DNA of 62,427 nt, counting the filler. It is 4 parts of 4 records of this genome, joined end to end, with 100 filler letters (N's around TTAATTAATTAA, not from the genome) between each part and the next. Parts side by side here need not be neighbours in the genome. Positions count along the whole stretch, not along the records: positions 14,114 to 44,843 come from SRR31156797_6277; 3 more parts are not named here. The stretch is one strand, 5' to 3'. Every line of letters starts with the position of its first letter. The first letter of the stretch is position 1. Positions 7,231 to 45,258 of the stretch are shown here, piece after piece. A program made the translations under genes and the position numbers. The notes under the pieces were generated by a model. The model ran no database searches. It was not told where the DNA came from and was given only the letters and a program-made list of their open reading frames with translations.

Positions 7231-7250
7231 AAATTAAAAGGGGGATTTAT

Positions 7251-8348
7251 ATGAAGATTAAATTATCAGTTTTATTTTCTTTAATGTTACTAAGTTTCTT
7301 TTACACAATGGCATTTGATACTTTGCCAAATGACAATGAAAACTGGAGAATACCGGGGAAATCAATAGGAATTACTACAGGTTCAAGCACAGGGACATAT
7401 ATTAAATTTGGGGAAACAATTAAGCGATTGGCGAAAGATGAGAATGTAAACGTCAAAGTATACGAGAGTAAAGGTTCTGTATCTAATATGATAAGGTTAA
7501 TTGGTAAAAAAACTTATGATTATGATAGAGATGATGCAGGAAGACCATTTCAGTTTGGGATAGTTCAACATGATTCTCTAAAATATTTCGAAACAAGAGT
7601 AAGGAGAGAAGAGGGCCTTGATCTAAAAAATTATATAAAAGTAGTATTGCCTTTATACAGTGAAGAAGTACATATTTTAGTAAATAAAGATTCGAACATA
7701 AATGATATTATGGATTTAGAAGGTAAAAAAGTAAGTATTGATCAAATTAACTCAGGAAGTTGGGTAACAGGAACGGTTATCCGAAGGTTTTTAGGTTTGG
7801 AATGGAGGCAGTATAACTATTCACCAAAAGAGTCAATTGTAAAAGTAATAAACGGTGAAATAGATGCATTTATTTATGTAGCCGGAATTCCTACCAAAAA
7901 TTTTGAAGCTTTAAGTAACTTGAAAAAAATAAAGAAAAAAGATGCAAACAGTGTAGTTAAGCTACTAGATGTAAAACCTTCTTGGAAAAATAAAGATAAT
8001 CCTTTATGGAGATTTTATTATGAAGCAGAAATCCCCGCATCCTCTTATAAATGGTTGAAAGAAGATGTACAGACTTTAAAAACAAAAGCTGTTCTGGTAA
8101 CATGGAACTATAAAAAAAATTCAAGCAAAGAATGGCACAGATATACTTATGACAATATAGATGATATTATTATTAGCATAAATGATAATTTATCTACTCT
8201 TCAAAGAGATGGACATCCGAAATGGAAGCAAGTTGATTTAAAAGATACTGAAATTGACTGGCCTTTTCATGAGAAAGCATTAGAAGCTTTAGAGTATATT
8301 AACACAGGTAAAATTAAAATAACAGAGGAAGATTTATTTAATTTTTAA
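7251..8348 (+). CDS. TAXI-family TRAP solute-binding protein
   Basis: Signal peptide; TGSSTGTY, SKGSVSN, LYSEEVHILV, DLEGKKV, terminal PFHEKA. Confidence 0.85.
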   Translation: MKIKLSVLFSLMLLSFFYTMAFDTLPNDNENWRIPGKSIGITTGSSTGTYIKFGETIKRLAKDENVNVKVYESKGSVSNMIRLIGKKTYDYDRDDAGRPFQFGIVQHDSLKYFETRVRREEGLDLKNYIKVVLPLYSEEVHILVNKDSNINDIMDLEGKKVSIDQINSGSWVTGTVIRRFLGLEWRQYNYSPKESIVKVINGEIDAFIYVAGIPTKNFEALSNLKKIKKKDANSVVKLLDVKPSWKNKDNPLWRFYYEAEIPASSYKWLKEDVQTLKTKAVLVTWNYKKNSSKEWHRYTYDNIDDIIISINDNLSTLQRDGHPKWKQVDLKDTEIDWPFHEKALEALEYINTGKIKITEEDLFNF

Positions 8349-8350
8349 GA

Positions 8351-8394
8351 TATCCCCTTACTTTTAAGTAAAAAGTAGGGGGATAGTTTTTTTT
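8351..8394 (+). terminator. Rho-independent terminator
   Basis: TATCCCCTTACTTTT-AAGT-AAAAGTAGGGGGATA followed by a T-run, just after the stop codon. Confidence 0.8.
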
Positions 8395-8508
8395 ATGAAA
8401 AAATCAAAACAATACTTTAGTATGGTGAAAACAACACATATTTATAGTATAGTAATAATATATAAAACTATGAAAAGATTAAACTATAAAAAAAGTGGGG
8501 ATGATAAA

Positions 8509-8967
8509 ATGATTGGGAATAATGAGATAAAGATTTTCATTCAAAATGAAAAAGGTAGTGACATCAGAAATAAGCATAATGAGAAAACTCTAGAATTTCT
8601 GGGAAAAGCAAAAAACAGATTAAAAGCTCCATACCCTTATCCTTATGGTTTTATTTTGGATACTTCAGCTGATGACGGAGATAATTTAGATTGTTATGTA
8701 ATAACAAATAAACAGTTTAGTGCTGGAGAGATAATTAGTTGTGAAGTAGTTGGATTGATTGAGCAATATGAGGAAGATGAAATTGACCATAAGATAATTG
8801 CAGTAATTCCAGATGAAGCGGTTGATCTGGAGAGAGCGTATAGTGAGATCGGGGAGTTTATTTATACGATTTTTTCAGTATATGATGATATTGAGATCAA
8901 AGTAGGGGAACTCCTGGGAAAAGAAGATGCTATGGAGCTAATTGAAAATTCTAGAGTAAATAAATGA
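8509..8967 (+). CDS. Inorganic pyrophosphatase family protein
   Basis: YPYPYGFILDTSADDGDNLD and EIDHKIIAV; ATG 8509 preferred because of the upstream GGGG RBS. Confidence 0.8.
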   Translation: MIGNNEIKIFIQNEKGSDIRNKHNEKTLEFLGKAKNRLKAPYPYPYGFILDTSADDGDNLDCYVITNKQFSAGEIISCEVVGLIEQYEEDEIDHKIIAVIPDEAVDLERAYSEIGEFIYTIFSVYDDIEIKVGELLGKEDAMELIENSRVNK

Positions 8968-9764
8968 GATTTATAAATATAGTTGTTATGATGCTTTTCA
9001 TATTTACAATAAATTTTTCATGTACTATTTTTACTTTGAGCGATGAATACAATACCCTGTTTTGCAATAACGAAGATTGGAAAAATCCTAAAAGCAGAAT
9101 ATGGTTTGAGCCAAAAGCAAAAAAGGATTACTATTCTTGTGCTTTCGTTGGATTTAACAATCAATGGGCACAGGGCGGTGTAAATACAGAAGGTTTAGCA
9201 TTTGATTGGGTTGCGGGATATAAAGGTAAAATTGATAAGAAAGCTATGCAAAAAAATGTTAGAGGAAATCCCAGTGAGAAGATGTTAAAAACTTGTAGAA
9301 ATATAGAAGAGGCAATTGAGTTTTATAAAGATCATTTTGAATCAGCTTTTTCATACGCCAGAATAATGATTGCTGACAGTTCCGGAAGTTCTGTAATTAT
9401 AGGAGCAAACAATGGGGAGCTATTTTATGAGAAATCAAATAGTCCAACTGGTATTGGTTATGCTCATGAGAAGGTAAAGAGTATCATTAGCTCAAAACCA
9501 AGTATTAGTACTGCAAAACTAATTGCAAAAATAGCAGAGCAAAAAGGAAAATACGGGACAAAATATCATAATTTTTTTGATTTGAAAAATGGAGATATCT
9601 ATATATTGACCAGTGGAAAAGATAAGAGATTAGTGAAGCTAAATCTTGAAGAAGAATTAGTTAAGGGAAAACATTACTACAATATTCCTAAAATTCATGT
9701 GGAAATAGAGAAGAGATTGAAGAAAAATAATAAGTTTAAAGAAATAATAAAATGGTTTTTTTAA
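8964..9764 (+). CDS. Exported Ntn-hydrolase (C45/C59-like)
   Basis: Signal peptide followed by CTIF (N-terminal Cys nucleophile), NNED and GGVNTEGL. Confidence 0.7.
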   Translation: MRFINIVVMMLFIFTINFSCTIFTLSDEYNTLFCNNEDWKNPKSRIWFEPKAKKDYYSCAFVGFNNQWAQGGVNTEGLAFDWVAGYKGKIDKKAMQKNVRGNPSEKMLKTCRNIEEAIEFYKDHFESAFSYARIMIADSSGSSVIIGANNGELFYEKSNSPTGIGYAHEKVKSIISSKPSISTAKLIAKIAEQKGKYGTKYHNFFDLKNGDIYILTSGKDKRLVKLNLEEELVKGKHYYNIPKIHVEIEKRLKKNNKFKEIIKWFF

Positions 9765-9796
9765 TTGTGCTTGATTAAAAAATTAGAATAGGAGAT

Positions 9797-11572
9797 GTGG
9801 AACAGATGGAATTTAGACTAATAATTGCGCTAATACAAGTAGTATTAATAATATTTACAATAATTAATTTAATTAAATTTTATTCTCGAAAGTCAGGAAA
9901 TAAAAAAGCCTCAAGAGAAGCATTATATAAGTTGAGAAAAGAACAGGGTGGTGAATTTCCTTCTGTTCCTACTGATCAGGTTGGACATTTAAAGGAGATT
10001 TACAAAAAAGATTTCAATATTGCAGAATTAGTTGAAATATCGGGGATTTATAGTGAGATGATTTTTGAAGCGCATCACAGAGGCGGTAAGACGGAGAGTA
10101 TAGTTTCATATTTCAATGAACATGAAGTAGTAGTTCCAAATAATAGTGATTTTAAAAGTGGAGTTAATTATGAGCTAAAAACAGCACTGCTAAAGAGTAA
10201 ACTCTATCTTATATCAGCTGAAGTATCTGAGATTCAGGAAAATGAGGAGCTTATTCAGGAAACTAATGAAATCGAAGGGGTATCTGCCACTGATAGTTTA
10301 GCAAAATTAGATGGTATTAAGCAAATAAGAACACAATCTACTGGTGAGAAGAAACTATTTTTAGCATCGTCAATAATTATTATCATAGGGACATTTTTTC
10401 TAAGTATTATGTCAGGTGTAGAAGCCTTTGTAGCTATTCCATATGTTGTTGCTATAACTTTGCTCTGTATGCTCATTAGTTTGATGCTAATGTTGATGAA
10501 ATCAAAGCCGGTAATATCGTTTAAGGGAGAAGTAACGAAAGATGAACATGGCAGTGTTTTTATAGAGAAGATACCACTTCTTATGCCAAAAAAATGGTCA
10601 AAAACAATTGAAAATGGAGAGATAGTTGAGATAGAAGCTATTAAGCAAGTTAATAAAGTAGTAACTTTAACTCCATTGAAGTATAAAGAGTTTTCAGTTC
10701 AGAAAGATAATAAAGGCTTTAAACTTAGCAGATTTATCTACTTTATTATTATGGCACTATATTTTTCCGGATTTACTTATTTAGTGTGGAATAGCAAAAA
10801 CTTTGAAAAACTCAGAACATACGCTAAGATAAAGGATATAAAATCAGATTTTTATACTCAGAAAGAGATAAATGAGCATGAGTTCGTAGAAGGGCAAATG
10901 ATAAAAATTCATAATGTAAGATATTTAGAGAATCCACATTATGGAGAAGCCTTGGTGTTAAATGACTTCCTTCCTTTGGATGAAAAATTAAATAGAAAAA
11001 TAGCTGAATGGGATGCAGTAGCTGAGGATATAAATATATTTGTACAAAACCCGGCAATGTATTTTTATCAAGGTAGAGGTAATAAATATACGGATAATCA
11101 ATATTTCACTAAATTACTGGAACTTCTACAAGATGCTAATTCGTCTCAAAATGAAATAGCTAGAACTTTTACGAGTTTTTTAAATAACAGGTTAAACCCT
11201 ATTAATGACGAAATAGAGAAGCTTCGGTTGGAGAGATATCAAAATGTTGAAAGTAGTTTAACTTTAACTGGGAGTTCAGTGAATAGTTCAGAGTATAGAT
11301 ACGTTAGAAATGCATATGATAGTTTTATAAAACTTCCTGATCTATTTAAAGCTTTTTATGGTATAAATGATGCCTTAGTTGAGGGAGTAGTAAATAGAGT
11401 AGAGGAGAAAAACGGAAAACTAAAACTGGAGATATCGAAGTACTCAAGTTATGATAGAATAGACAGGTATAAACCATATGAAAAATTGTTTGAATTTTTA
11501 TATTCTGTAGTTGCTATATTTGTAATGCTTATGTTACTTGAACTATTTAGATTAGTGTTTAAACGAGATTAA
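9797..11572 (+). CDS. Multi-pass membrane protein, IgaA/UmoB-like architecture
   Basis: Five hydrophobic segments in a 1+2+1+1 arrangement with a large domain before the last. LLMPKKW and EFVEGQMIKI recall IgaA segments (from memory). Confidence 0.5.
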   Translation: MEQMEFRLIIALIQVVLIIFTIINLIKFYSRKSGNKKASREALYKLRKEQGGEFPSVPTDQVGHLKEIYKKDFNIAELVEISGIYSEMIFEAHHRGGKTESIVSYFNEHEVVVPNNSDFKSGVNYELKTALLKSKLYLISAEVSEIQENEELIQETNEIEGVSATDSLAKLDGIKQIRTQSTGEKKLFLASSIIIIIGTFFLSIMSGVEAFVAIPYVVAITLLCMLISLMLMLMKSKPVISFKGEVTKDEHGSVFIEKIPLLMPKKWSKTIENGEIVEIEAIKQVNKVVTLTPLKYKEFSVQKDNKGFKLSRFIYFIIMALYFSGFTYLVWNSKNFEKLRTYAKIKDIKSDFYTQKEINEHEFVEGQMIKIHNVRYLENPHYGEALVLNDFLPLDEKLNRKIAEWDAVAEDINIFVQNPAMYFYQGRGNKYTDNQYFTKLLELLQDANSSQNEIARTFTSFLNNRLNPINDEIEKLRLERYQNVESSLTLTGSSVNSSEYRYVRNAYDSFIKLPDLFKAFYGINDALVEGVVNRVEEKNGKLKLEISKYSSYDRIDRYKPYEKLFEFLYSVVAIFVMLMLLELFRLVFKRD

Positions 11573-11674
11573 CAGCTTTTGAGGAAATAAACTAACTAAA
11601 AAAATAAGAACTCCTTGAAATATAAAGTTTGAGAGTTTCTGGGAGCACATAAATAAAATGTGGAGGAAATATTT

Positions 11675-12253
11675 ATGAATAAAAACAGATGGACTGTTTT
11701 ATTAATTGGTGGCTCATCAGGTATAGGAAAAAGCAGTATAGCCAAAGAGTTATCAAAGATATATGACGCAAAAATAATTGAAGCGGATGATATATGCTGT
11801 GCTGTTGAAGCCATGACAAACGCCGAATCACATCCGGCAATCCATTATTGGATGGGAGATACAGACTGGAGAGACATCGGTGTAATGGGAAACGTAGATT
11901 GGTTATGTAAAGTGAGTGATGAGTTAAGCCATGCATTGAAAGCTATAGTTCAGAATCATATTGAAGAGGAAAAAAATCTAATCATTGAGGGAGACTTTAT
12001 ATCTGCAAAACTAGCTGCTTCATTTGAAAATCCAAATATAAAAGTTGTATATATTTATGAAGATGATGAAACTCAAATTGTAAATAATTATTTGAGAAGA
12101 GAAGGTGGAAAAGCGCAAGAGTTTAGATCAAGTATAAGTGTCGAATATGGAAAAAAGCTAAAAAATGATTGCAACGAGCATGGTCTAAAGATAGTAGAGT
12201 CCAGGCCCTGGAACTCTCTGTTAGATAGAGTGATTGATTGTATAAATAGATAG
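11675..12253 (+). CDS. P-loop kinase (2-phosphoglycerate kinase-like)
   Basis: LIGGSSGIGKS Walker A and LIIEGD; GGAGG RBS before ATG 11675. Confidence 0.75.
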   Translation: MNKNRWTVLLIGGSSGIGKSSIAKELSKIYDAKIIEADDICCAVEAMTNAESHPAIHYWMGDTDWRDIGVMGNVDWLCKVSDELSHALKAIVQNHIEEEKNLIIEGDFISAKLAASFENPNIKVVYIYEDDETQIVNNYLRREGGKAQEFRSSISVEYGKKLKNDCNEHGLKIVESRPWNSLLDRVIDCINR

Positions 12254-14013: not shown

Positions 14014-14113
14014 NNNNNNNNNNNNNNNNNNNNNNNNNNNNNNNNNNNNNNNNNNNNTTAATTAATTAANNNNNNNNNNNNNNNNNNNNNNNNNNNNNNN
14101 NNNNNNNNNNNNN
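14014..14113. other. Artificial contig linker
   Basis: N-run with TTAATTAATTAA (stops in all six frames) at 14058-14069. Confidence 0.98.
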
Positions 14114-15112
14114 TCTTCTTTGCATTGCTGCATCTTTTTCAAAGTATTTTCTATACTCTTTTAAAGTAGTCGCTCCGATTGTATGAAGTTCCCCTCTAGC
14201 AAGTGCTGGTTTTAAGATATTTGCTGCATCCATAGAACCTTCACTAGCCCCAGCTCCAATAATAGTATGGATCTCATCAATAAAGAGGATAATATTTCCT
14301 TGTTTTTGTACCTCTTTAATAACTGCTTTTAATCTATCTTCAAACTCTCCTCTATATTTTGCCCCAGCGATCATCGCTGACATATCAAGAGCGATCACTT
14401 TTTTATTTTGTAAGCTTGTAGGAACATCTTTATCAACAATTCTTTGAGCTAGACCTTCAGCAATAGCTGTTTTACCAGTTCCAGGCTCCCCTAGTAAAAT
14501 AGGGTTGTTTTTAGTCTTTCTAATTAAGATCTGCATCATTCTTTGGATCTGTTCATCTCTACCAATCACAGGATCAAGTTTCCCATCAATCGCTTTTTTA
14601 TTAAGATCGATCCCATATTTTGAAAGTGCTTCAAGGTTATCATCACTACTTTGTGAATCAACCTTTGCTCCACCTCTTATAGATTCAAGCTCTTTTTTTA
14701 CTTCTACTAGATCTACATATTTCCCTAAAATATCTTTAAATACTTGCAGCTTTAGATTTGCAATAAGCCATGTATCTACTGCTATAAAGTTATCTCCAAT
14801 ACTTGCCATAAGTCCACTTGCATTATTAAGACTCTCCACTGCATTTCTACTGATCTTAATATTGTTTTTAGCCACTGTACTTGAGGTTGGTAGTTTTCCT
14901 GCAATACTTTTTGCTTCTAATTCAATGGCAGTTTTATCTATATTCATTTTATTTAAAAGCTGATTTAATACGCTATTAGTATTAGTTAAAAGTGCCCAGA
15001 GGATATGTACCACTTCAACTTCAGAGTTTTTATTATGTAATGCAAGAGAGAGTGAAGACTCAATGGTTTCTTGCATTTGATTTGTTAGTTTTTCAAAAAT
15101 ATTGTTTGACAT
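14114..15112 (-). CDS. clpB: ClpB chaperone, N-terminal part (truncated by contig end)
   Basis: Clp N-domain; [32 protein letters not shown]. Confidence 0.9.
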
Positions 15113-22901: not shown

Positions 22902-25697
22902 TTGCAAAACGAAATACAAACACGTCAAGAACATATTGATACAAAATTACTCCTCTCTGGTTGGGATGTAAATAACTATGCTCTAGTAAGGGAAGAATTT
23001 GTAAATAGTTCTGTGGTTTCAGATATAAAGTCTACCTATACAAAAGATAAAAAACAGTTTTGTGATTATGTTCTTCTTGGTCGAGACGGGAAGCCTTTGG
23101 CTGTGATTGAGGCAAAAAAAAGTTCAATTGATGCTAGGGTTGGGCAAGAACAGGCTAAGCAGTATTGTTACAATCTACAAAATGAATATGATATCGATCT
23201 TCCTTTTTGTTTTTATACCAATGGCAATGATATCTACTTTTGGGATATAGAAAATTATCCACCTAGAAAAATCTATGCGTATCCTACTAGAGAGGATTTA
23301 GAGCGATTACGTCATATACAAAAATATAAAAAGTCCCTTTCCCATGAGTTTATTGATACTTCTATTGCAGGGAGAGATTATCAGGTGAGTGCCATACGAT
23401 CAGTGATGGAGCTTATTGATAAAAAAAGAAGAGATTTTTTACTAGTGATGGCAACCGGTACAGGGAAAACTCGTACTACGATTGCACTTGTGGATGCTCT
23501 TTTAAGGGCTGGGTATATTAAAAATACTCTTTTTTTAGTAGATAGGGTGGCTTTACGTGAACAAGCTATTGAGGCTTTTAAAGAGTATATCCCAAGTGAA
23601 CCTATTTGGCCAAAGTTTGGGGAGAGTAGTATAAGTAAAGATAGACGTATCTATGTAGCTACATATCCAACGATGTTAAATATTATACGAGATGAGGAGC
23701 AGACTCTCTCTTCACATTTTTTTGATCTAATTGTGATAGATGAATCTCATAGATCTATTTATAATACTTATGGAGAGATTCTTAATTATTTTGATTCCAT
23801 TAAGCTAGGGCTTACGGCAACTCCTACCAATGTGATAGATCATAATACTTTTGATCTTTTTGCTTGTGAGGATGGACTGCCATCATTTGCATACTCTTAT
23901 GAAGAGGCCTTGGATCATCTCCCACCGTATCTATGTGATTTTGAGGTGTTAAAGATACAAACAAAGTTTCAAGATGAGGGGCTTAGTAGAAGAACTATCT
24001 CTTTAGAAGATCAAAAAAAGATGATCTTGGAAGGAAAAGAGTTAGATTTAGATGAGATAAACTACGAGGGGACTCAGCTAGAAAAAGATGTGATCAATAG
24101 AGATACCAATCGTATTATCGTAAAAGAGTTTATGGAAGAGTCTATAAAAGATAGTGATGGGGTGATTCCTACAAAAAGTATCTTTTTTTGTATGACCAAA
24201 GCTCATGCTAGAAGAGTAGAAGAGCTTTTTAACTCTTTATATCCAGAGTATAAAGGGGAGCTTGCTAAAGTGATTGTTTCAGATGATAGTAGAGCTTATG
24301 GAAAAGGTGGGCTTTTAGATCAGTTTAAAACCCAAGATATGCCAAGAGTTGCTATAAGTGTGGGTATGCTCGATACAGGAGTAGATATCAAAGAGGTATC
24401 AAATCTAGTATTTGCAAAGCTTATTTACTCTTATACCAAGTTTTGGCAAATGATAGGGCGGGGGACTAGGCTCCTTGATCAACAAAATTTACAACCTTGG
24501 TGCATAGAAAAAGAGAAGTTTCTTATAATGGATTGTTGGGATAATTTTGAGTATTTTAAGCTTGAACCTCAGGGGAAAAACCTCACTTCTCAAACTCCTT
24601 TGCCTATTATATTCTTTGGGCTAAGGGTTCAAAAGATAGCAAGTGCATTAACGCTAGATGAAAAGATAGCACAAAAAGAGATAGAAAAGCTAAAAGAGTT
24701 TATAGAGTTATTTCCTAAAAACTCTACGATCATACAAGATGGGAAAAATTATCTTGATAAGTTGGATTCTCTATTTTATAGAACGCTTTGCAAAGAGAGT
24801 TTAGAGTTTTTAGATGAGTTTATAAAACCCTTGGCAAAATCTATCGTAGGGGTGGATTATAAAGCGATGCGATTTGAAAAAGATGTATTGGAGTACTCTA
24901 TCTATCTCCTTGAAGATGATGAGCAAAATAGGGTAAAACAAAGAGATACTTTGATAGCTTTAATAGAGAAGCTTCCTTTAAGTGTCAATATAGTGGCAAA
25001 AGAAGAGGAACTTATCTTAAAAGCTAAAGAGGTAAAATACTGGAACCATCTAAGCGATAGTGATCTTGATATCTTAGTGGATAAATTAGCACCACTTATG
25101 AAATATAGAGCTGAAGGAGGCGTGGGAGATGATGAGACTCCAAGCTTTGATTTTAAAGATTATATCAAGAAAAAAGAGTATGTGGAGTTTGGTGCAGATA
25201 GGGAATCTGTAAGTATTACAAAATATAAGCAGATGGTAGAAGAAAAGATCAAAGAGCTTTTAAATAAAAATATCTCTCTACAAAAGCTAAAAGAGGGAAA
25301 AACTTTATCAAAAGAAGAGATAGAAGAGTTAGCCCAGACTCTACACCAGCAAGACCCTTTTATCACCCTTGATCTTTTGCGTAGGGTGTATATGAATAAA
25401 AAAGCACCTTTTTTAAAGTTTATCAAACATATTTTAGGAATAGAAGAGCTAAAAAACTTCCCAGATACAGTAAGTGAATCTTTTGAGAAGTTTATCAAAG
25501 AGCATCCTACCCTTACCGCCACACAGTTAAAGTTTTTGGATCTATTAAAAGGATTTATTATAGATAATGAGAGCTTAAGTAAAAAAGATCTTATATCTGC
25601 ACCTTTTACAGTGATACATCCCTCTGGTATATTGGGGATATTTTCTGATAATGAGATAGATGAAATAATAAATATTACACAGGAGTTAGTAGCATAA
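22902..25697 (+). CDS. hsdR: Type I restriction enzyme R subunit (EcoAI/EcoEI-like)
   Basis: DY...IEAKK nuclease motif, ATGTGKT, DESH, TATP, QMIGRGTR; EcoEI_R_C-like tail. Confidence 0.93.
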   Translation: MQNEIQTRQEHIDTKLLLSGWDVNNYALVREEFVNSSVVSDIKSTYTKDKKQFCDYVLLGRDGKPLAVIEAKKSSIDARVGQEQAKQYCYNLQNEYDIDLPFCFYTNGNDIYFWDIENYPPRKIYAYPTREDLERLRHIQKYKKSLSHEFIDTSIAGRDYQVSAIRSVMELIDKKRRDFLLVMATGTGKTRTTIALVDALLRAGYIKNTLFLVDRVALREQAIEAFKEYIPSEPIWPKFGESSISKDRRIYVATYPTMLNIIRDEEQTLSSHFFDLIVIDESHRSIYNTYGEILNYFDSIKLGLTATPTNVIDHNTFDLFACEDGLPSFAYSYEEALDHLPPYLCDFEVLKIQTKFQDEGLSRRTISLEDQKKMILEGKELDLDEINYEGTQLEKDVINRDTNRIIVKEFMEESIKDSDGVIPTKSIFFCMTKAHARRVEELFNSLYPEYKGELAKVIVSDDSRAYGKGGLLDQFKTQDMPRVAISVGMLDTGVDIKEVSNLVFAKLIYSYTKFWQMIGRGTRLLDQQNLQPWCIEKEKFLIMDCWDNFEYFKLEPQGKNLTSQTPLPIIFFGLRVQKIASALTLDEKIAQKEIEKLKEFIELFPKNSTIIQDGKNYLDKLDSLFYRTLCKESLEFLDEFIKPLAKSIVGVDYKAMRFEKDVLEYSIYLLEDDEQNRVKQRDTLIALIEKLPLSVNIVAKEEELILKAKEVKYWNHLSDSDLDILVDKLAPLMKYRAEGGVGDDETPSFDFKDYIKKKEYVEFGADRESVSITKYKQMVEEKIKELLNKNISLQKLKEGKTLSKEEIEELAQTLHQQDPFITLDLLRRVYMNKKAPFLKFIKHILGIEELKNFPDTVSESFEKFIKEHPTLTATQLKFLDLLKGFIIDNESLSKKDLISAPFTVIHPSGILGIFSDNEIDEIINITQELVA

Positions 25698-27334
25698 TGT
25701 TGCAAAATGATAAAATAAAAAGTCTTATAGATAAACTATGGAATAAATTTTGGAGTGGAGGTATTTCAAATCCACTTACGGCAATAGAGCAGATAACTTA
25801 TCTGATCTTTATAAAAAAATTAGATGATCTTGATATAGAAAATATAAAAAAAGCAAAGTTTGCAGAGGATAAGTATACTTCTATTTTTGAAGGAACATAT
25901 ACAAAACTTGTTAAAGTGATAAATAAAAAAACAGGTAAAGAAGAAGAGATATCAAAAGAGTTTTCAAAAATAGAGTTTAAATGGAGCATATTTTTCCATT
26001 TTGGTTCGGAAGAGAGACTAGAGCATATCTCCCAATATGTTTTCCCTTTTATAAAAGATTTGGGAGATCAAAACTCACACTTTACAAAATATATGAAAAA
26101 TGCAGTCTTTGTAATCCCTAGTGCTTCCCTTTTACATGAGGCTATGTATATCATAGAAGATATTTTTAAAGAGATTAAAAAGGATTATAAAGATAAAAAG
26201 AACGAGCATCAAGATATCCAAGGTGATGTCTATGAGATGCTTTTAAACGAGATAGCAAGTGCAGGAAAAAATGGGCAGTTTAGAACACCAAGACATATTA
26301 TAAACCTTGTGGTGGATTTAGTAGACCCTCAACCAGAAGATAAGATTGTAGACCCTGCTTGTGGGAGTGCAGGGTTTTTACTAGGAGCATATCAGTATAT
26401 TAAAACAGTCCTAGATAAAGATAATGAATCTAAACAAGTTGATGAGTATGGATTTAAAAGAAGTCGGTATAGTAAATATTTTACATCAAAACGAAAAAAA
26501 CTCATAGAGAGTAATTTAAAAGGTTATGATATAGATGTAACTATGGTAAGACTTGGACTTATGAATCTTATGATGCATGATATTAGTAATCCAAATGTAG
26601 AGTATATTGATACCTTAAGTAAAAGCTTTCAAAAATATAGCTCAGATTTAAATTATTATAATGTGGTTTTAGCAAATCCTCCATTTACAGGAAATCTTAA
26701 TAAAGGGGAGATGGATAATACCCTTAGTTTAAATACTACAAAAACAGAGCTTCTATTTATAGATAGAATTCATTCTATGTTAACAAAGGGTGGGACAGCT
26801 GGTATTATTATTCCTCAAGGAGTACTTTTTGGAAGTGGGAAGGCTTTTGTAGATGCTAGAAAGCTTATGATAGAAAAATCCCAATTAAAAGCAGTGATCA
26901 CTATGCCAAGTGGAGTATTTAAACCCTATGCAGGGGTAGCTACAGCAATACTTATTTTTAGCAAAGTATTTGATGCAAAAGATAAACTAAATACAGAAGA
27001 TGATTACAAGGTGTTTTTTTATGATATGAAAAGTGATGCACGTAGCCTTGATGATAAAAGAGTTAAACTAGATGGCTATGGTGACCTACAAGATATTATT
27101 CAAAAGTATAAAACTAGGGAAACTTCAACAGAGCCAAACGATAGAAAAGCAAAATATTTTTTAGTAGATAAAAAAGAGATAGTGGAAAATGACTATGATC
27201 TTAGTTTTGGAACTTATCAAGAGCTTACTTTTGAAGAAGAAATTTATTCTGATCCAAAAGATATTTTAGATGAGCTTATAAGTTTAGAAGATGAGATTCA
27301 GGATAAGCTAAAAGAGATAAAGCGTTTATTTTAA
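25697..27334 (+). CDS. hsdM: Type I N6-adenine methyltransferase M subunit
   Basis: GQFRTPRH, DPACGSAGFL and ANPPF; stop/start overlap with hsdR. Confidence 0.95.
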   Translation: MLQNDKIKSLIDKLWNKFWSGGISNPLTAIEQITYLIFIKKLDDLDIENIKKAKFAEDKYTSIFEGTYTKLVKVINKKTGKEEEISKEFSKIEFKWSIFFHFGSEERLEHISQYVFPFIKDLGDQNSHFTKYMKNAVFVIPSASLLHEAMYIIEDIFKEIKKDYKDKKNEHQDIQGDVYEMLLNEIASAGKNGQFRTPRHIINLVVDLVDPQPEDKIVDPACGSAGFLLGAYQYIKTVLDKDNESKQVDEYGFKRSRYSKYFTSKRKKLIESNLKGYDIDVTMVRLGLMNLMMHDISNPNVEYIDTLSKSFQKYSSDLNYYNVVLANPPFTGNLNKGEMDNTLSLNTTKTELLFIDRIHSMLTKGGTAGIIIPQGVLFGSGKAFVDARKLMIEKSQLKAVITMPSGVFKPYAGVATAILIFSKVFDAKDKLNTEDDYKVFFYDMKSDARSLDDKRVKLDGYGDLQDIIQKYKTRETSTEPNDRKAKYFLVDKKEIVENDYDLSFGTYQELTFEEEIYSDPKDILDELISLEDEIQDKLKEIKRLF

Positions 27335-28923
27335 TGAAATTAAAGCAAGTTAAATTAAAAGATATTGTAAAAGTAGGAGCTGGTCAATCAGCTCCTAAAA
27401 AAATTGATAATGATGTTAATGGATTAACCTTTATTCGAGCAGGGAGTGTAGAAAAACTTATACAAACAGATGACACGAGTTTTTTAGAGAGAGTTAGTTT
27501 AGAACAAGCAAAAGAAAATAAGCTAAAAATATATGAAAAAGATACAGTAGTATTTGCTAAAAGTGGTATATCTGCCACTCTTAATAGAGTTTATATGTTG
27601 AAAGAAAAAAGTTATGTTGTAAGTCACTTAGCTACATTGATCCCTATTAATATATATCCAAAATATTTATTATATGCGTTAAGATATTTTTCTCCAACTG
27701 TTTTAATTAAAGATTTTGCATATCCTTCAATTAGTTTAAAAGCAATAGAAAATCATTTGATTATTATTCCTGAAAGATATGAAGATCAGGAAAAAATAGC
27801 TAATCTATTATCTCAAATAGAAACTTTAAACATAAAAAGAGAAAAAACTATAGTACTTCTTGATAAGTTAGTAAAAAGTACATTTTTGGATATGTTTGGT
27901 GATCCTATAACGAACTCTAAAGGTTGGGAAAAACGTAAATTAGGAGAGATTTTTAAAATAAAGCATGGCTATGCTTTTAAAAGTGAATACTTTAAAGAAT
28001 CAGGAAAATACCTATTACTTACTCCAGGAAATTTTTTTGAAAAGGGTGGATTTAGAGAAAGAGGTAAATTACAAAAGTATTATGTTGGAGATATACCACA
28101 AGAATATATTTTGAGAAAAAATGATTTATTAGTTGCAATGACAGAGCAAACAGCTGGCTTACTTGGGAGTTCATTATTAGTTCCTTCCTCTGATAAATAT
28201 TTACATAATCAAAGATTGGGACTTGTGTCTCCTACAGAGGAAATTCAAGTAATGTTTCTATTACATCTTTTTAATCAGGATTCAATTCGTAAAATTATAC
28301 ATGCAAAAGCTAGAGGGATGAAAGTTAGACATACTTCACCATCGAAAATAGAAGATATTTGTATAGGTTACCCTCCAAAAGATTTACAAGATAAATTTGC
28401 AAATATAGTGATAAAAATAGAAAGCACAAAAAAAATCTATCAAAATAGCTTAGATGAACTTCATCAACTTTTTAGTTCAGTATCTCAAAAAGCTTTTAAA
28501 GGAGAACTTGACTTTGAAGAAGATGAAAGTGAACTTGATAACTATTTAGCAGAATTATATAGAAAATATAAGAAAAATGAAGAAAAAGTTTTTATTGCTA
28601 AACAAATGGATGTAAATAACATTTCACTTCCTCAAAGCTCAAATATAGAAAGCCAAAAAAGTTTTACTAAAAATAGTTTGATTGAAGATATCTTAGAGCA
28701 ACTAAAGCCAAAAGGACTTACTTTTGCACAGCTTAGTCAATACTTTAAAGATAACAACTATTACGATATCCCTTATGATGGGAAACTAGATGATATGAAG
28801 ATTGAAATTAATATTAAAGATATTATTTTTCAGCTTTTAAAAGAGGAAAAGCTTTTTCAAATCTTTGATAGAGAAACAAAACAGATACTATTAGGAGTAA
28901 AAAAATGCGACTTAGACGTATAG
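27334..28923 (+). CDS. hsdS: Type I specificity subunit with about 137-aa C-terminal extension
   Basis: Two TRDs with conserved spacers (EDQEKIA...FLDMFGDP; PPKDLQDKF...AFKGEL), then extra sequence. Confidence 0.9.
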   Translation: MKLKQVKLKDIVKVGAGQSAPKKIDNDVNGLTFIRAGSVEKLIQTDDTSFLERVSLEQAKENKLKIYEKDTVVFAKSGISATLNRVYMLKEKSYVVSHLATLIPINIYPKYLLYALRYFSPTVLIKDFAYPSISLKAIENHLIIIPERYEDQEKIANLLSQIETLNIKREKTIVLLDKLVKSTFLDMFGDPITNSKGWEKRKLGEIFKIKHGYAFKSEYFKESGKYLLLTPGNFFEKGGFRERGKLQKYYVGDIPQEYILRKNDLLVAMTEQTAGLLGSSLLVPSSDKYLHNQRLGLVSPTEEIQVMFLLHLFNQDSIRKIIHAKARGMKVRHTSPSKIEDICIGYPPKDLQDKFANIVIKIESTKKIYQNSLDELHQLFSSVSQKAFKGELDFEEDESELDNYLAELYRKYKKNEEKVFIAKQMDVNNISLPQSSNIESQKSFTKNSLIEDILEQLKPKGLTFAQLSQYFKDNNYYDIPYDGKLDDMKIEINIKDIIFQLLKEEKLFQIFDRETKQILLGVKKCDLDV

Positions 28924-30641
28924 AGCTCCATGATGATTTTAGAAGTTTAAAAAGTGGTTTTAAACTTGATTTTATAAAAGAAGCACCAAAAGGTAACTCT
29001 GCTATAGAACCATACTGCGTAGTGGGTAGAAATGGAAGTGGAAAGTCTAATATCTTGGAGCTTTTAAGTGCTATATTTTATCAGGTTGAGGTGGTTCATC
29101 TCAATTTTTTGCCAAAGGAAAAGACACCTAATTATGTAGATAATAAAGAGAAAAAATATATCTCAAATAATACAGATGAATATATAGATAATAGGGAATA
29201 TAAAGAGTTAGAGATATTTCAAAAGTTTATAACAGATCCTAAATACATAATAGAACCTGAAAGTTATAAACTGCAATATTATATGACAAATCAAGACAAT
29301 CATGAAGTGTTAGTTACTATTGAAAGAAAATCAAAAAAAATCACCGTTTTTATAGAAGATGATAATGGAGAACCTATATATGTTTTAGGAGATGATGTTA
29401 AAGAGTTATTACCTTCTTATATCGTAGGGTATTCTTCTGGAGAAAATGAGATACTAAGCTTGCCTTTTTATAAAATGAGACTTATACAATATGATGAGTA
29501 CGTAGATGATTATTTGGCAAAAGATATAAGCTTTAAAATTCCTGAAGCTAGGATGATATACCTCGATGATGCTTTTTCACAAGCAATATTTATTACTAAT
29601 TTCATTTATACTGATGAAAAGGTCAATAAAGTATTTACAGAGACTATAGGTGTAGAATCTGTAGAATCTTTTAGATTAGTGATTAAAGATGATATTGATA
29701 CAAGAGTAGTCGTTGAAGTAAAAGAAAAAGGGAAAAAAGGTACACAGCTAAAAGATAGATCAAGATTTCTCAGGGAGCAAATAGGTGAACAGATTGATAA
29801 ACTAAAAAGCTGTGCTACTATGGAATATAAAAATGAAAAGACAAATGAGTTGTATCTTGATTATTATTTAGATGATAATATAAAAGAGGCTTTTACTTTA
29901 CAGTTTGGTAAAGGGAAAGGAGGAAGACTTGCACTTTTTCAAACTTTTCAAATTCTTATCAACTTAAACTATTACTATGTAGATAAAGAGACAAAAAAGA
30001 AGCTGTATGAATCAAAAAGTCTTTTTAGTAAAGGTTATTTACCACAAGTTTCATGGAATAAAAGATTTTTCACTTTTAAAAACTTTATGCTAAAGAAAAA
30101 AGGGATCGATGATCTAATATATAGTAAGTCTCTCTCCGATGGTGAGTATCAGTTTTTACACTCTATAGGACTAGCCCTAATTTATAGAGATACTCAATCG
30201 CTGTTTTTATTAGATGAACCAGAAACCCACTTCAACCCATCTTGGAGAGCAGAGTATATGAGTGTACTAAAAGAGTGTTTTAGTGGTACAAAAAGAAAAG
30301 CAGAGTTTTTGATAACCTCTCACTCACCTTTTATTGTTTCTGATACAAAGGAGGAAAAGGTACTCTTTTTTAAAAAAGATAAAGAGGGTAATGTCAAAAG
30401 AAAACCACTGGATTTTAATAGTTTTGGAGCTTCTGTAGATAAAATCACTGCTAAAGTATTTGGACAAAAAAATAGTATGGGAGATAGGTCTTTAGATATT
30501 TTAGAAGAGTATAGGGATAAGATAGATAATTCAGATGATCTTAAAGCTTTAGTAAAAGATATAGAGGGTGAACTTGGGGAATCTATTGAAAAGTTTTTAC
30601 TTTTAAAATCTATCTTTGATAGGATGAAAGGGAAAGATTAA
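28905..30641 (+). CDS. Restriction-system-associated ABC/AAA_21 ATPase (PtuA-like)
   Basis: GRNGSGKS, LSDGE signature, LLDEPETH and ITSHSP; C-terminal LGESIEK helix. Confidence 0.85.
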   Translation: MRLRRIELHDDFRSLKSGFKLDFIKEAPKGNSAIEPYCVVGRNGSGKSNILELLSAIFYQVEVVHLNFLPKEKTPNYVDNKEKKYISNNTDEYIDNREYKELEIFQKFITDPKYIIEPESYKLQYYMTNQDNHEVLVTIERKSKKITVFIEDDNGEPIYVLGDDVKELLPSYIVGYSSGENEILSLPFYKMRLIQYDEYVDDYLAKDISFKIPEARMIYLDDAFSQAIFITNFIYTDEKVNKVFTETIGVESVESFRLVIKDDIDTRVVVEVKEKGKKGTQLKDRSRFLREQIGEQIDKLKSCATMEYKNEKTNELYLDYYLDDNIKEAFTLQFGKGKGGRLALFQTFQILINLNYYYVDKETKKKLYESKSLFSKGYLPQVSWNKRFFTFKNFMLKKKGIDDLIYSKSLSDGEYQFLHSIGLALIYRDTQSLFLLDEPETHFNPSWRAEYMSVLKECFSGTKRKAEFLITSHSPFIVSDTKEEKVLFFKKDKEGNVKRKPLDFNSFGASVDKITAKVFGQKNSMGDRSLDILEEYRDKIDNSDDLKALVKDIEGELGESIEKFLLLKSIFDRMKGKD

Positions 30642-30642
30642 G

Positions 30643-31701
30643 ATGCTTAAACCTTATAAATATTTAAAACACGATCTAGAAAAAGTCCAAGATTTTGTCA
30701 ATTATATATTTTATGATATTTGGATGAAAGCTGATCTATCAAAAACGTATTTGACTCTTTTTCTAAAAGAACCCTATAAAAAGCTTATGAATGATCTGAA
30801 TGTATCAGATAGTATGACTAGCAGTAAATTTTGTATATTGGTAGATAATATTTATAAAAAAGTTGGAGGACTTGATCAGACTAAGAAAGAACTCCTTAAA
30901 AGCTATTATCAAACGAACTTAAATATAGAGGCTTTATGTGAAGATACAACTATTATTCCTATTAGCTATACAAAACTTGAAAAAGAGTTTGGTACAAAAC
31001 TAACAGATAAAATTAAAGAGTTTTATGATCTTTTATATGGAAGCGGTAGTATTTTGACTTTAAAAGAAGTACTTCGTATTTCTAGTTTTGGTGATCATTA
31101 TGATCAATTTATAGAAGAAAATAAAAATAGATGTTTATTTTGTGGACTAGATAAGTTAGAGATTGTCGAGGAGTATAGAAGTGATTATGATCACTTTTTA
31201 CAAAAAGCAAAATACCCTTTTGTATCTATAAATTTAGAAAATCTAGCTCCAACTTGTGATAGGTGTAATAAAAAGTTTAAAGGGAGTAAAGACCCATTAT
31301 ATAAAGAAGATAAGGTTACAAGAAGAAAAGCTATCTATCCATACTCTTTAAAACCATATGATTTTACTATACATATGAAATTAAAAAATATAGTTGATAC
31401 AAAAGGAAAGATAAAAGATACCAATATTGATATGGATCTTTTTGTAAAATCAAAAGAAGAAACTAATACATGGAATGAACTTTATAAAATAGAAAAGAGA
31501 TATAAAGGAGTGTGCAGTTCTAAAGATGAAGCTGATAGATGGATACAAAGTGCTAGATTATATATGAAAGAATCCAATTCATCTTTAGATGGTTATATAG
31601 AGTTTCAAAAAAAGAGATTAGAGGAGATTGATCCTTATTTTGAAATATTATTTTTGCAGTTGCCATTTTTAGAAGCTTGTAAAGAGGCAGATATAATTTG
31701 A
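30643..31701 (+). CDS. HNH endonuclease (PtuB-like) with N-terminal extension
   Basis: CLFCG...DHFLQKAKYP...NLAPTCDRCN. Confidence 0.8.
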   Translation: MLKPYKYLKHDLEKVQDFVNYIFYDIWMKADLSKTYLTLFLKEPYKKLMNDLNVSDSMTSSKFCILVDNIYKKVGGLDQTKKELLKSYYQTNLNIEALCEDTTIIPISYTKLEKEFGTKLTDKIKEFYDLLYGSGSILTLKEVLRISSFGDHYDQFIEENKNRCLFCGLDKLEIVEEYRSDYDHFLQKAKYPFVSINLENLAPTCDRCNKKFKGSKDPLYKEDKVTRRKAIYPYSLKPYDFTIHMKLKNIVDTKGKIKDTNIDMDLFVKSKEETNTWNELYKIEKRYKGVCSSKDEADRWIQSARLYMKESNSSLDGYIEFQKKRLEEIDPYFEILFLQLPFLEACKEADII

Positions 31702-31851: not shown

Positions 31852-32478
31852 GTGAAAGAGGAAGTTCGACAAAAGTTTATAACAGATGCTAGACTTCAAA
31901 ACTACTATAATCTTCAAGAGTATAAACATAATATTTATATAAGTGAAAAATACTATATTTTACTCTCGATTTTTGAAATAAGTTTACGAAACTCTATAGA
32001 TGATTATTTTAAATCTAAGATATGTGTCGCTTGGTTAGATAGTGAGATATTACATATTGATACAAAACAAAGAGTAGATGAAGCAAAAAAGAAGATTCTA
32101 CAAAGAAGGGAAACTGTAACACACGATAAAATTATTGCAGAGTTGCCCTTAGGTTTCTGGACTTCTCTTTTTAGAAAGTCATATACAAATCTAATAAGAG
32201 TAAAAGATATTAAGCATATCTTCCCAAATATTCCACCTAAAAAACAAAAGTTAATAACTCGTAGTATATTAGATAGAAAATTAAATTTAATAAGAAAATT
32301 TAGAAATAGAGTTTTTCATTATGAGAGGATAATAAAAAAGCAAGAGTATATAAATATACAAAATGAGATTTTTGAATTATTGTTATATTTTGATGAAGAG
32401 ATTAGTAACTTTGCTAGTGAAATGATTGATAAGAAGGATTCAGTTGTTTCTATTTTGGAAATAGCTAAAAAAGGGTAA
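31852..32478 (+). CDS. Abi family (AbiD/AbiF-like) HEPN ribonuclease
   Basis: FEISLRN, LPLGFW and RNRVFH (RxxxxH). Confidence 0.8.
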   Translation: MKEEVRQKFITDARLQNYYNLQEYKHNIYISEKYYILLSIFEISLRNSIDDYFKSKICVAWLDSEILHIDTKQRVDEAKKKILQRRETVTHDKIIAELPLGFWTSLFRKSYTNLIRVKDIKHIFPNIPPKKQKLITRSILDRKLNLIRKFRNRVFHYERIIKKQEYINIQNEIFELLLYFDEEISNFASEMIDKKDSVVSILEIAKKG

Positions 32479-32653: not shown

Positions 32654-33688
32654 ATGGATAAACAAATCTCAATAAATACTCCTCAAAAATTTTCAAACTT
32701 TGTGATATTTAAGATAGATGATGCAAAAGTAAATATCGATGTGTTTTTCTACGATGAGACCTTATGGCTTACTCAAAAGCAAATTGCAGAGCTCTTTGAT
32801 AAGGGTAGAAGTACTATTACGGAGCATATTAAAAAGATATTTGATGATGGAGAATTGGATGAAAAAGTGGTATGTCGGAAATTCCGACACACCACAGAAC
32901 ATGGTGCAATGGAGGGGAAAACACAAACTAAAGAGGTTCAATATTACAATCTAAAAGTTATCACAGCTGTAGGATATAAAGTAAACTCTCATAGAGCAGT
33001 AGAGTTTAGAAAATGGGCGAGTGATATTTTACATGAGTACATTATCAAAGGTTTTACTATGGATGATGAGAGGTTAAAACATCTTCAACATTTTGGTATA
33101 GATTACTTTGATGAGCAATTAGAACGTATAAGGGAGATAAGACTTAGTGAGAGAAGATTTTATCAAAAAATCACGGATATTTATGCTTTAAGTGCTGATT
33201 ATGATAAAAATGATGAACTTACAAAACAGTTTTATTCGACTGTTCAAAATAAACTACATTGGGCAATATGTGGTAAAACTGCTGCTGAGATTATTTATAG
33301 TGAAGCAGATGCTTCTAAAATCTATATGGGACTTAAAACTTGGAAAAATGCCCCTGATGGAAAAATTCTTAAATCAGATGTAACAATAGCAAAAAACTCT
33401 TTAGACACTGAACATATAAAACAACTAGAAAAAATAGTATCAGCTTATCTTGATCTTGCAGAAAATAGAGCAAATAGAGGTATTGTTATGAATATGAAAG
33501 ATTGGATAGAGTTTTTGGATAAGTTCTTAGATCTATCTATGTATCCAATTCTTTTAGACAATGGTAAAATAACAGCTTTACAAGCTAAACTAAAAGCAGA
33601 ATCTGAATATGAAAAATATAGAGTAATTCAAGATAAAGTGTATCTATCTGATTTTGATTTGATGATTAGTGGAATTGAGAAAAAATAA
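32654..33688 (+). CDS. rhuM: RhuM-family DNA-binding protein
   Basis: WLTQKQIAELF, FRKWA, IKGFTMDDERLK, IRLSERRFYQK and VQNKLHWA. Confidence 0.88.
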   Translation: MDKQISINTPQKFSNFVIFKIDDAKVNIDVFFYDETLWLTQKQIAELFDKGRSTITEHIKKIFDDGELDEKVVCRKFRHTTEHGAMEGKTQTKEVQYYNLKVITAVGYKVNSHRAVEFRKWASDILHEYIIKGFTMDDERLKHLQHFGIDYFDEQLERIREIRLSERRFYQKITDIYALSADYDKNDELTKQFYSTVQNKLHWAICGKTAAEIIYSEADASKIYMGLKTWKNAPDGKILKSDVTIAKNSLDTEHIKQLEKIVSAYLDLAENRANRGIVMNMKDWIEFLDKFLDLSMYPILLDNGKITALQAKLKAESEYEKYRVIQDKVYLSDFDLMISGIEKK

Positions 33689-44843: not shown

Positions 44844-44943
44844 NNNNNNNNNNNNNNNNNNNNNNNNNNNNNNNNNNNNNNNNNNNNTTAATTAATTAAN
44901 NNNNNNNNNNNNNNNNNNNNNNNNNNNNNNNNNNNNNNNNNNN
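44844..44943. other. Artificial contig linker
   Basis: N-run with TTAATTAATTAA at 44888-44899. Confidence 0.98.
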
Positions 44944-45258
44944 TGCCAGTTTTACCCATTCTTCGGCATTAAATTTTACCGGATTAAACTGTTTAGCCAG
45001 TTTTTCATATTCTGTTACCGGAATTTCAGCGCGTGCCATTATCCATTCGCTGATTCCCGGAATTTCTTCTCCTTCCCATTCCCCGGCAGGAATTGCATAT
45101 AATCCCCAATGGATAAACATTCCGAAACGTGCGTCGCGCCACCATTCCATTTTTGCTTCATGTTCTACAACCGAGTCGTTTTTAACAGATTCCTTAATTT
45201 TATTATTGCATGAAGTAATGAGAAAGAGTATTCCCAAAAGAACAATAAGTTTATTCAT
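44944..45258 (-). CDS. Alpha-L-fucosidase (GH29) lipoprotein, N-terminal part
   Basis: LITSC lipobox; [16 protein letters not shown] and [11 protein letters not shown]. Confidence 0.88.

Follow-up and report, generated by a model that had tools for sequence, protein, structure and literature searches.

A type I restriction–modification operon in which a tail on HsdS probably tethers a PtuAB-like ATPase–HNH pair

To our knowledge, only a few of the ways in which a restriction–modification (RM) system is wired to a second effector are understood, namely those of PrrC, Ronin and EcoR22I. Here we describe a further candidate, a five-gene operon in which hsdR, hsdM and hsdS of a type I RM system are followed by genes for an ABC ATPase and an HNH nuclease; it lies in a 62,427-nt stretch of DNA (the window), along the whole of which all positions are counted. 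The closest described systems are introduced here as presented in the cited sources. PrrC is encoded nearly exclusively within type I RM loci, where it is silenced by EcoprrI and fires when a phage peptide blocks restriction (bioRxiv 10.1101/2024.01.29.577857). Ronin consists of HsdM, HsdS and the 61-aa toxin RonA, which is fired by Ocr or ArdA; HsdMS senses anti-restriction proteins or serves as their decoy, and hsdR is missing from many copies (bioRxiv 10.1101/2023.04.06.535777). In Retron-Eco7, PtuAB is held inactive until the multicopy single-stranded DNA (msDNA) is cut by a phage nuclease (PMC12673091, PMC11555353), the acidic msDNA being sandwiched by PtuA dimers and keeping them inactive (PMC12673091). 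The ABC ATPase AriA of PARIS answers Ocr and looses a nuclease on tRNA (PMC12065111, PMC12839542). Finally, PDC-M62 is a PADLOC candidate system made up of an ATPase and a second protein in RM, BREX or DISARM loci.

The ATPase of the window belongs to TIGR04435, which NCBIfam calls 'restriction system-associated AAA family ATPase', so that its association with restriction systems was already known to annotators. A literature search found no paper on TIGR04435 or its product name, none on PtuAB with HsdS in the sense discussed here, and none on a C-terminal extension of HsdS together with an ABC ATPase. As far as the literature searched extends, four features described below are new: the HsdS tail and the site on which it is predicted to dock, sister loci that have no tail, HsdS–ATPase fusions, and forms without HsdR.

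Our main conclusion is that the ATPase–HNH pair is probably a physical part of the RM complex, attached through a C-terminal tail of HsdS, because this tail occurs only alongside the pair, because modelling predicts that it docks on the ATPase, and because HsdS and the ATPase are covalently linked in three fusion proteins. The operon comprises five open reading frames (ORFs) on the + strand at 22902–31701, exactly where the initial annotation had placed them, with the following features:

22902–25697, + strand: hsdR, type I restriction subunit (931 aa, TTG start)
25697–27334, + strand: hsdM, N6-adenine methyltransferase (545 aa)
27334–28923, + strand: hsdS, whole gene (529 aa)
27334–28515, + strand: hsdS core, residues 1–394, two target-recognition domains and conserved helices (Methylase_S, Specificity_I)
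28516–28665, + strand: hsdS linker, residues 395–444, variable, poorly conserved and of low model confidence (tail alignment; pLDDT, the local distance difference test as predicted by the model)
28666–28923, + strand: C-terminal acidic winged-helix domain of hsdS, residues 445–529 plus the stop codon, predicted to dock on the ATPase
28905–30641, + strand: ABC ATPase, TIGR04435, distant relative of PtuA (578 aa)
29808–29903, + strand: ATPase residues 302–333, the surface predicted to receive the HsdS winged helix (complex model and conservation)
30643–31701, + strand: HNH nuclease with a PtuB fold (352 aa)

Direct reading of the sequence also bore out the junctions. A TAATG stop/start overlap is found at hsdR/hsdM and again at hsdM/hsdS, hsdS overlaps the ATPase gene by 19 nt with an AGGAG upstream of the ATPase ATG, and a gap of 1 nt separates the ATPase and HNH genes. 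A sequence scan gave 53 promoter-like sites (56.6 expected) and 2 terminator-like sites (3.1 expected).

By Pfam and PADLOC, the first three products form an ordinary type I enzyme. HsdR matched ResIII (8.5e-41), EcoEI_R_C (3.5e-27), HSDR_N (7.6e-10) and Helicase_C in Pfam and REase_I in PADLOC (1.5e-146), and both its nuclease motif D55..E70-x-K72 and a QxxxY motif were invariant in 50 of 50 aligned homologues. Judged from these matches, it is a superfamily 2 (SF2) motor with an intact PD-(D/E)xK nuclease; against the NCBIfam model restrict_EcoAI (type IB) it scored 272 bits, below the cut-off of 550. Since the nuclease motif is kept in all 50 homologues, the HNH protein is not a substitute for a dead HsdR nuclease, and we discarded this explanation. 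HsdM matched N6_Mtase (6.6e-57), HsdM_N and PADLOC MTase_I (8.7e-151), with NPPF visible in the translation. HsdS matched Methylase_S in two stretches (2.9e-25), and the 397-position PADLOC profile Specificity_I (8.3e-73) spanned its residues 6–394.

The fourth and fifth products were identified as distant but real relatives of PtuA and PtuB by sequence and structural model, with their active-site motifs intact. The hidden Markov model (HMM) of TIGR04435, the family named in the initial annotation, indeed matched the ATPase at 551.6 bits (cut-off 300; 2.2e-165), its profile positions 1–567 of 568 aligning with residues 1–574. Among PADLOC models the best was PtuA (PDLC00293, 3.5e-55), and a profile built from 21 ATPase homologues matched the solved PtuA chains of Septu and type I-A retrons in the PDB (E 1.8e-9 to 6.7e-7), this match being limited to residues 400–531. 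The NCBIfam PtuA equivalog NF041760, whose cut-off is 500, reached 55.3 bits in a match confined to the C-terminal 135 residues. Weaker scores were obtained with the PADLOC model for AriA (3e-19) and with MAD3 (8.8e-7), the latter indicating weak kinship to MADS, a methylation-based system. The Walker A, signature and Walker B motifs and the H-loop were invariant in 65 sequences. For the fifth protein, Pfam and NCBIfam returned no match; it carries the HNH motif CxxC..DH..N..CxxCN, whose HNH and zinc residues C164, C167, D183, H184, N200, C205, C208 and N209 were invariant in 71 aligned homologues. Its AlphaFold2 model (pLDDT 93.5) was compared with 48,161 chains by VIA-align wide, and the top four were all PtuB: 8ee7_C (Z 8.5, root-mean-square deviation 4.4, 193 aligned residues), 9kjx_F (Z 8.3), 9n6b_F (Z 8.2) and 9e8z_E (Z 6.7), followed by an unrelated chain at Z 4.8. 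Foldseek against the PDB gave nothing significant for this model, its best hits (E ∼1) being PtuB chains. The PtuA/PtuB-like character ascribed to the pair in the initial annotation was thus recovered by PADLOC, by the PtuA chains and by the PtuB fold.

To follow the operon across genomes, we used a pattern scan with one genome per species, which gave 609 stretches and 180 confirmed relatives, of which the best 80 were kept; ORFs were called in these loci (referred to by handles such as L023) and searched with the window's proteins. The kept loci span many phyla, and because the arrangement recurs among them it lies far beyond chance. The HNH gene was directly 3′ of the ATPase gene in 79 of 80 loci, the sole miss having 59 nt of contig left, and hsdS was directly 5′ in 75 of 80; of the five misses, two lie at contig ends, one arises artificially from a frameshift in the ATPase gene, one is a rearranged locus and one has only fragments. 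hsdM was found upstream in 71 of 80 (the misses being six loci with <1.7 kb of upstream sequence plus L019, L032 and L039) and hsdR in 59 of 80. Fifteen of the hsdR misses had <4.1 kb upstream, one was the rearranged L039 and five had ∼10 kb upstream; hsdR was therefore kept in 59 of the 64 loci not merely short of upstream sequence. Wherever flanking DNA sufficed, the ATPase of the kept loci stood in an hsd context. The linkage to type I RM genes, on which the initial annotation had staked its proposal, is thus conserved.

Overlaps between genes were frequent at the ATPase/HNH (63/79), hsdS/ATPase (48/76) and hsdM/hsdS (57/70) junctions, and the hsdR/hsdM junction was often split by inserted genes. 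Over 50 complete loci, the distance matrices computed for HsdR, HsdM, the ATPase and the HNH protein correlated at 0.71–0.88, values reached in 0 of 200 permutations, shared host ancestry contributing to them. The TIGR04435 family is widespread but sparse: of 401 genomes sampled from the phylum of L023, 12 had a score above cut-off, as did 3 of 401 from that of L040. A relative was present in only 4 of 72,556 plasmid records, from which we conclude that the system is mostly chromosomal. The genes inserted between hsd genes, seen in L006, L010, L022, L055, L063, L064, L083 and L091, encode a YhcG/DUF1016 PD-(D/E)xK nuclease, a Schlafen AlbA_2 protein with a Fic-like C-terminus and a Bro-N protein.

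The specificity profile stops at residue 394 of the 529-aa HsdS, leaving ∼135 extra C-terminal residues. A long HsdS is the rule in ATPase-linked loci, with at least 492 aa in 71 of 76; the five shorter ones are explained by contig starts, an insertion sequence (IS) element or a deletion. The extra part begins with a linker of poor conservation and continues into a domain of ∼85 aa in which F499 and Q509 (window numbering) are nearly invariant. In an AlphaFold2 model of 110 aa starting at HsdS residue 420, pLDDT was <50 at model residues 1–7 and 9–24, and the domain itself took the topology H-E-H-H-E-E with moderate confidence (mean pLDDT 67, block means 53–92). VIA-align wide matched it to winged helices at Z 6.6–7.8, including histone H5, Fur, the winged helices of MCM8 and ORC2, and subunits of the Smc5/6 and Wadjet complexes; Foldseek against the PDB gave LOTUS domains as its best hits, at E 0.05. 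Across 65 homologues the domain is acidic, with a median net charge of −6 and an isoelectric point <7 in 91%, and a role in binding DNA is therefore unlikely. A profile of the domain matched 429 proteins among 1.84 billion representatives, and in all 150 listed of these the match lay within ∼25 residues of the C-terminus. Methylase_S was present in 27 of the 28 scanned matches of at least 390 aa.

A natural control was provided by loci of the same RM family without the ATPase. Searching the same 401 genomes of the phylum of L023 with HsdM, we found a close relative (E 1e-140 or better) in 25, of which 15 had no TIGR04435; together with two loci from the second phylum these make up a set of 17 (HsdR E = 0, HsdM 1e-155 to 1e-185). 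Eleven of the 12 complete HsdS proteins in this set measured 388–423 aa, and the winged-helix HMM matched in 0 of the 17 loci. It did match in three of five further ATPase-linked loci outside its training set. The one long HsdS (606 aa; L082, G283:C17, 1345–6173, −) is followed by a different ATPase, which is not TIGR04435, and its partner, a true PDC-M62 pair by PADLOC (1.7e-46 and 1.1e-43). Its tail, unmatched by the winged-helix profile, may be a second type of adaptor tail. Conversely, in L100 (G560:C14, 2669–13652, +) the type I genes to which the tail–ATPase–HNH module is joined come from another family (HsdR, 1136 aa, 3e-44; HsdM, 483 aa, 2e-31), and the 601-aa HsdS carries the winged helix (6e-7). 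On the HsdM tree, ATPase-less loci are scattered among ATPase-linked ones, ATPase state changing seven times and HsdS length six times; an independent-pairs test, which dropped seven rows with a missing or cut HsdS, gave 3.7 pairs changing the same way and 0 the opposite way. The HsdS tail comes and goes together with the ATPase–HNH pair.

Sequence divergence and modelling both point to the ATPase as the partner of the tail. Divergence of the winged helix tracked that of the ATPase best (correlation 0.72), and given HsdM and HsdR a partial rank correlation of 0.46 was left, compared with partial correlations of 0.07 for HsdM, 0.12 for HsdR and −0.09 for the HNH protein. We then modelled ATPase residues 1–570, HNH residues 1–350 and the winged helix as three chains. 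The complex scored 0.64 and the best of three controls 0.00; 51 of 78 solved complexes and 2 of 108 mismatched pairs also reach the mark that it passed. Runs shared at least 96% of contacts, partner pLDDT was at least 72, and swapping out the ATPase abolished the score. All confident contacts fell on the ATPase (residues 254–255 and 302–333) and none on the HNH protein, and on the tail side they involved helix three together with the wing (HsdS residues 495–520), including F499 and Q509. The predicted ATPase surface has the motif L..C.T....L.LD....AF...F, conserved to at least 90%, in which C303 and D319 are invariant and T305, L316, L318 and A329 nearly so; the predicted contacts thus use family-conserved residues on both sides.

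The same connection is made covalently in three proteins of 1045–1076 aa, single metagenomic sequences, that contain Methylase_S and the ATPase in one chain. Two of them have an HsdS body up to about residue 405–435, a linker of 40–58 aa and an ATPase that starts with its own methionine. The winged-helix profile matched in 0 of the three, so that the covalent link replaces the dock, as expected if the dock serves as the attachment. The docking motif of the ATPase is partly kept in these fusions.

Some relatives have no HsdR. Five kept loci have ∼10 kb of upstream sequence and no hsdR (L014, L019, L032, L034 and L046); a whole-genome HsdR search at 1e-10 found none in four of the five genomes, and in the fifth the sole match was 32% identical and on another contig. 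Two of these loci, L019 and L032, also have no hsdM, stand beside an integrase or IS element and look decayed. L096 likewise has the arrangement M-S-ATPase-HNH without hsdR, the order in L097 and L101 is S-ATPase-HNH-M, and a Priestia plasmid is annotated with a methylase, an S subunit, a 'restriction system-associated AAA family ATPase' and a hypothetical protein, with no R subunit nearby. The invariant core is HsdS (with tail), the ATPase and the HNH protein, almost always accompanied by HsdM. Two candidates for a replacement of HsdR were rejected: a SIR2 protein in L034 (3630–6782, +), which belongs to a neighbouring SIR2-pAgo system, and a 1286-aa protein in L097 (7859–11719, −), which is Tiamat TmtA. 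A SIR2-pAgo fusion and Tiamat TmtA thus stand directly beside M-S-ATPase-HNH loci without hsdR.

How might such a complex work? In the reading that we prefer by a narrow margin, to which, trigger included, we assign a rough probability of 40%, the five genes would encode one integrated defence machine. HsdS would end in a flexible linker and a small acidic winged helix that docks on a conserved surface of the PtuA-like ATPase, which in turn would carry the PtuB-like HNH nuclease, so that a Septu-type effector would be leashed to the methyltransferase/specificity core (M2S). The RM core would serve as the sensor, with the leashed effector quiet during normal restriction and modification. This second layer would fire when the core is engaged and restriction cannot finish, for example because of a phage DNA mimic or another anti-restriction protein, and the HNH nuclease would then cut nucleic acid (tRNA or DNA, like PtuAB relatives) and stop the infection. 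Forms without HsdR would be decoys like Ronin. Gene content, intact catalytic motifs, conserved gene order and the joint occurrence of tail and pair are observed and the dock is predicted, whereas inhibition, trigger, target and abortive infection are inferred; we favour the backup-effector role because of the precedents set by PrrC, Ronin and Retron-Eco7.

Several points weigh against this sensor and backup-effector reading. The 80 kept loci are the best-scoring relatives and not a random sample; the four well-supported independent pairs on the HsdM tree, all in one direction, make for an underpowered test (p = 0.125); and the winged-helix HMM gave no match in the divergent ATPase-linked loci L096 and L097. 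The correlation between tail and ATPase is descriptive and may come partly from their being adjacent DNA, and the docking score is the model's own confidence, obtained in a three-chain job unlike the calibration and with a monomeric ATPase. A long, variable and probably disordered leash would transmit a conformational change poorly, and since the fusions cannot release their effector, they are hard to reconcile with a guard of the Retron-Eco7 type, based on sequestration and release, and would allow only one that fires in the attached state. Loci without hsdR can equally be read as complete RM systems with ATPase–HNH as the nuclease. According to the initial annotation, the RM complex takes the place of the retron as sensor, so that phage anti-restriction releases the nuclease. 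Of this, the coupling between RM enzyme and pair stands, and is probably physical in view of the co-occurrence of tail and pair, the predicted dock and the fusions; simple release agrees poorly with the leash and the fusions.

A flexible leash and fusions would be just as compatible with a nuclease that acts without leaving the RM core. The pair could accordingly be a second nuclease acting in cis, which we regard as a serious possibility, if not quite our expectation. The leash would bring the pair to M2S on unmethylated sites, where the HNH protein would cut that DNA, alongside HsdR if all five genes are present and in its place if hsdR is absent; engagement of ATPase heads between leashed complexes on foreign DNA could be the switch, and the pair would then bring about true restriction and not abortive infection. 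A flexible linker with a docking domain is an architecture of recruitment, and the fusions hold the ATPase permanently attached. The M-S-ATPase-HNH loci without hsdR, including L096 and the Priestia plasmid, and the S-ATPase-HNH-M order in L097 and L101 are also in line with this explanation, as are the reported degradation of phage DNA by Septu PtuAB (PMC12673091) and the occurrence of a weakly related ATPase (MAD3, 8.8e-7) in the methylation-based MADS. However, most loci (59/64) keep an intact HsdR (motif 50/50), which would make the pair redundant there, and the leash alone cannot obviously tell unmethylated from hemimethylated or non-specific DNA, with a risk of self-damage. Furthermore, Septu, retron PtuAB and PARIS are described as answering infection cues and not a specificity subunit (PMC12065111, PMC12673091).

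We consider it improbable that the pair is an independent Septu-like system, merely co-located and co-transcribed with the RM genes, and that the HsdS tail has an unrelated role. Septu is reported to work alone, often inside methylation systems such as Hma (bioRxiv 10.1101/2024.01.29.577857), genes of other kinds (YhcG nuclease, Schlafen/Fic-like, Bro-N, RhuM), unrelated to the RM enzyme, are embedded in type I loci of the present set, and the pair has been gained and lost within one RM family. However, tail and pair appear and disappear together, and the adjacency of hsdS, ATPase and HNH genes outlasts other changes, such as the exchange of the RM family in L100, the altered order in L097 and L101 and the loss of hsdR. 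The predicted docking with its clean controls, the existence of HsdS–ATPase fusions and the hsd context of the ATPase in all 80 kept loci with enough flank likewise speak against independence.

A role in servicing or regulating the RM enzyme, such as the clearing of stalled complexes or restriction alleviation, without any attack on phage or host nucleic acid, would agree with the predicted dock and with the general role of SMC/Rad50-like ABC ATPases on DNA. We think it very improbable, as all PtuAB relatives characterized in the cited work are effectors (PMC12673091, PMC11555353) and the forms without HsdR have no restriction to regulate.

It is conceivable, if doubtful, that the HsdS tail is a purpose-built adaptor that wires a Septu-type ATPase–nuclease into the methyltransferase core, with the S subunit doubling as infection sensor. 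If this were true, the tail would be a protein counterpart of the msDNA cage of retrons, and nature would offer it in three versions: a non-covalent winged-helix dock, a covalent HsdS–ATPase fusion and Ronin-like forms without HsdR. PDC-M62 pairs would then have a second type of adaptor. In that case HsdS tails in general would offer second-layer immunity a plug-in socket that has been overlooked, and the partner could be predicted from the tail. Beyond this, the analysis bears on the question of how layered defences talk to each other, and it turns an observation on gene neighbourhood into a hypothesis that can be tested by mutation, namely that HsdS residues 445–529 dock on ATPase residues 302–333. 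Natural controls are at hand in the fusions, the tail-less sister loci and the forms without HsdR. The operon is thus a clean system for asking whether a sequence-specific DNA-binding subunit can aim or gate a Septu-type effector.

As to the surroundings, murJ lies upstream of the operon on the opposite strand, and a PD-T4-5-like gene (31852–32478, +; PADLOC 7.3e-14) and a RhuM/PDC-S05 gene (32654–33688, +; PADLOC 3.4e-137) lie downstream. RhuM matches (E 1e-102 or better) were found 3′ of the HNH gene in six related loci, immediately following it in L043, L049 and L054 and farther along in L027, L058 and L077. Elsewhere in the window, a group II intron is represented by a reverse transcriptase/maturase ORF (31–1545, −; RVT_1 3.1e-42, GIIM) and by intron RNA at 1994–2101 (−; Rfam group-II-D1D4-7, 55.6 bits). 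The stretch 5635–12253 (+) begins with a gene for a protein with caspase (Peptidase_C14) and FGE-sulfatase domains, continues with co-directional genes, three of which (8964–12253) are without a Pfam match, and has a strong positive GC skew; it may be another conflict system. At 49430–51214 (−), where local G+C is raised to 0.448, a flavoprotein appears to be split into two ORFs, with the FAD_binding_2 N-terminus at 50768–51214 and Succ_DH_flav_C at 49430–50590, which may reflect a frameshift or a pseudogene. Two short ORFs each cover just a portion of a larger family: one of 348 aa at 14066–15112 (−) with Clp_N and one AAA domain, and one at 44896–45258 (−) with 120 aa of an alpha-L-fucosidase.

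Compared with the systems introduced at the outset, the operon shares features with each and differs from each. It would act like a Septu or retron-PtuAB effector that is coupled to a type I enzyme after the fashion of PrrC or Ronin. PARIS uses the TOPRIM nuclease AriB where the window has an HNH protein, and AriA senses Ocr directly, without an RM partner; AriB is not among the 25 PADLOC families listed for the HNH protein. PDC-M62 is a sister pair, with scores of 3.2e-17 (A) and 4.2e-15 (B) for the window's proteins, and in L082 it follows the 606-aa HsdS of the same RM family; the L082 tail, however, is not a winged helix and its ATPase is not TIGR04435. With PrrC the operon has in common that a type I RM locus includes the gene for an effector of ABC-ATPase type. 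In PrrC, however, the anticodon nuclease is fused into one protein, encoded between hsd genes, whereas the window has an effector of two proteins, its nuclease is of the HNH type and its HsdS has a dedicated tail, and PrrC is not among the 25 PADLOC families listed for the ATPase. The M-S-ATPase-HNH forms without hsdR are a parallel to Ronin, whose effector is a small membrane peptide and not an ATPase–nuclease pair, and for which the available part of the preprint describes no HsdS tail (bioRxiv 10.1101/2023.04.06.535777).

The likeness to Septu and to the type I-A retrons lies in the effector itself. As in Septu, an ABC ATPase with intact motifs is followed by an HNH protein that has the PtuB fold over its whole length. 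Membership in Septu nevertheless fails on two features, the equivalog score and autonomy: the ATPase is only a distant relative of PtuA (55.3 bits against 500), and the pair is not self-contained, hsdS being directly upstream in 75 of 80 loci. The HNH protein is also ∼130 aa longer than the matched PtuB chains. The type I-A retrons (Retron-Eco7/Ec78 and Eco4/Ec83) differ in that the window's system has no reverse transcriptase or msDNA, its partner being a leashed protein domain, and in that release is impossible in the HsdS–ATPase fusions. What they would share with it is a PtuAB effector bound by a sensor that is encoded just upstream, the part of the acidic msDNA being matched here by an acidic, upstream-encoded domain (median net charge −6) that is predicted to bind the ATPase.

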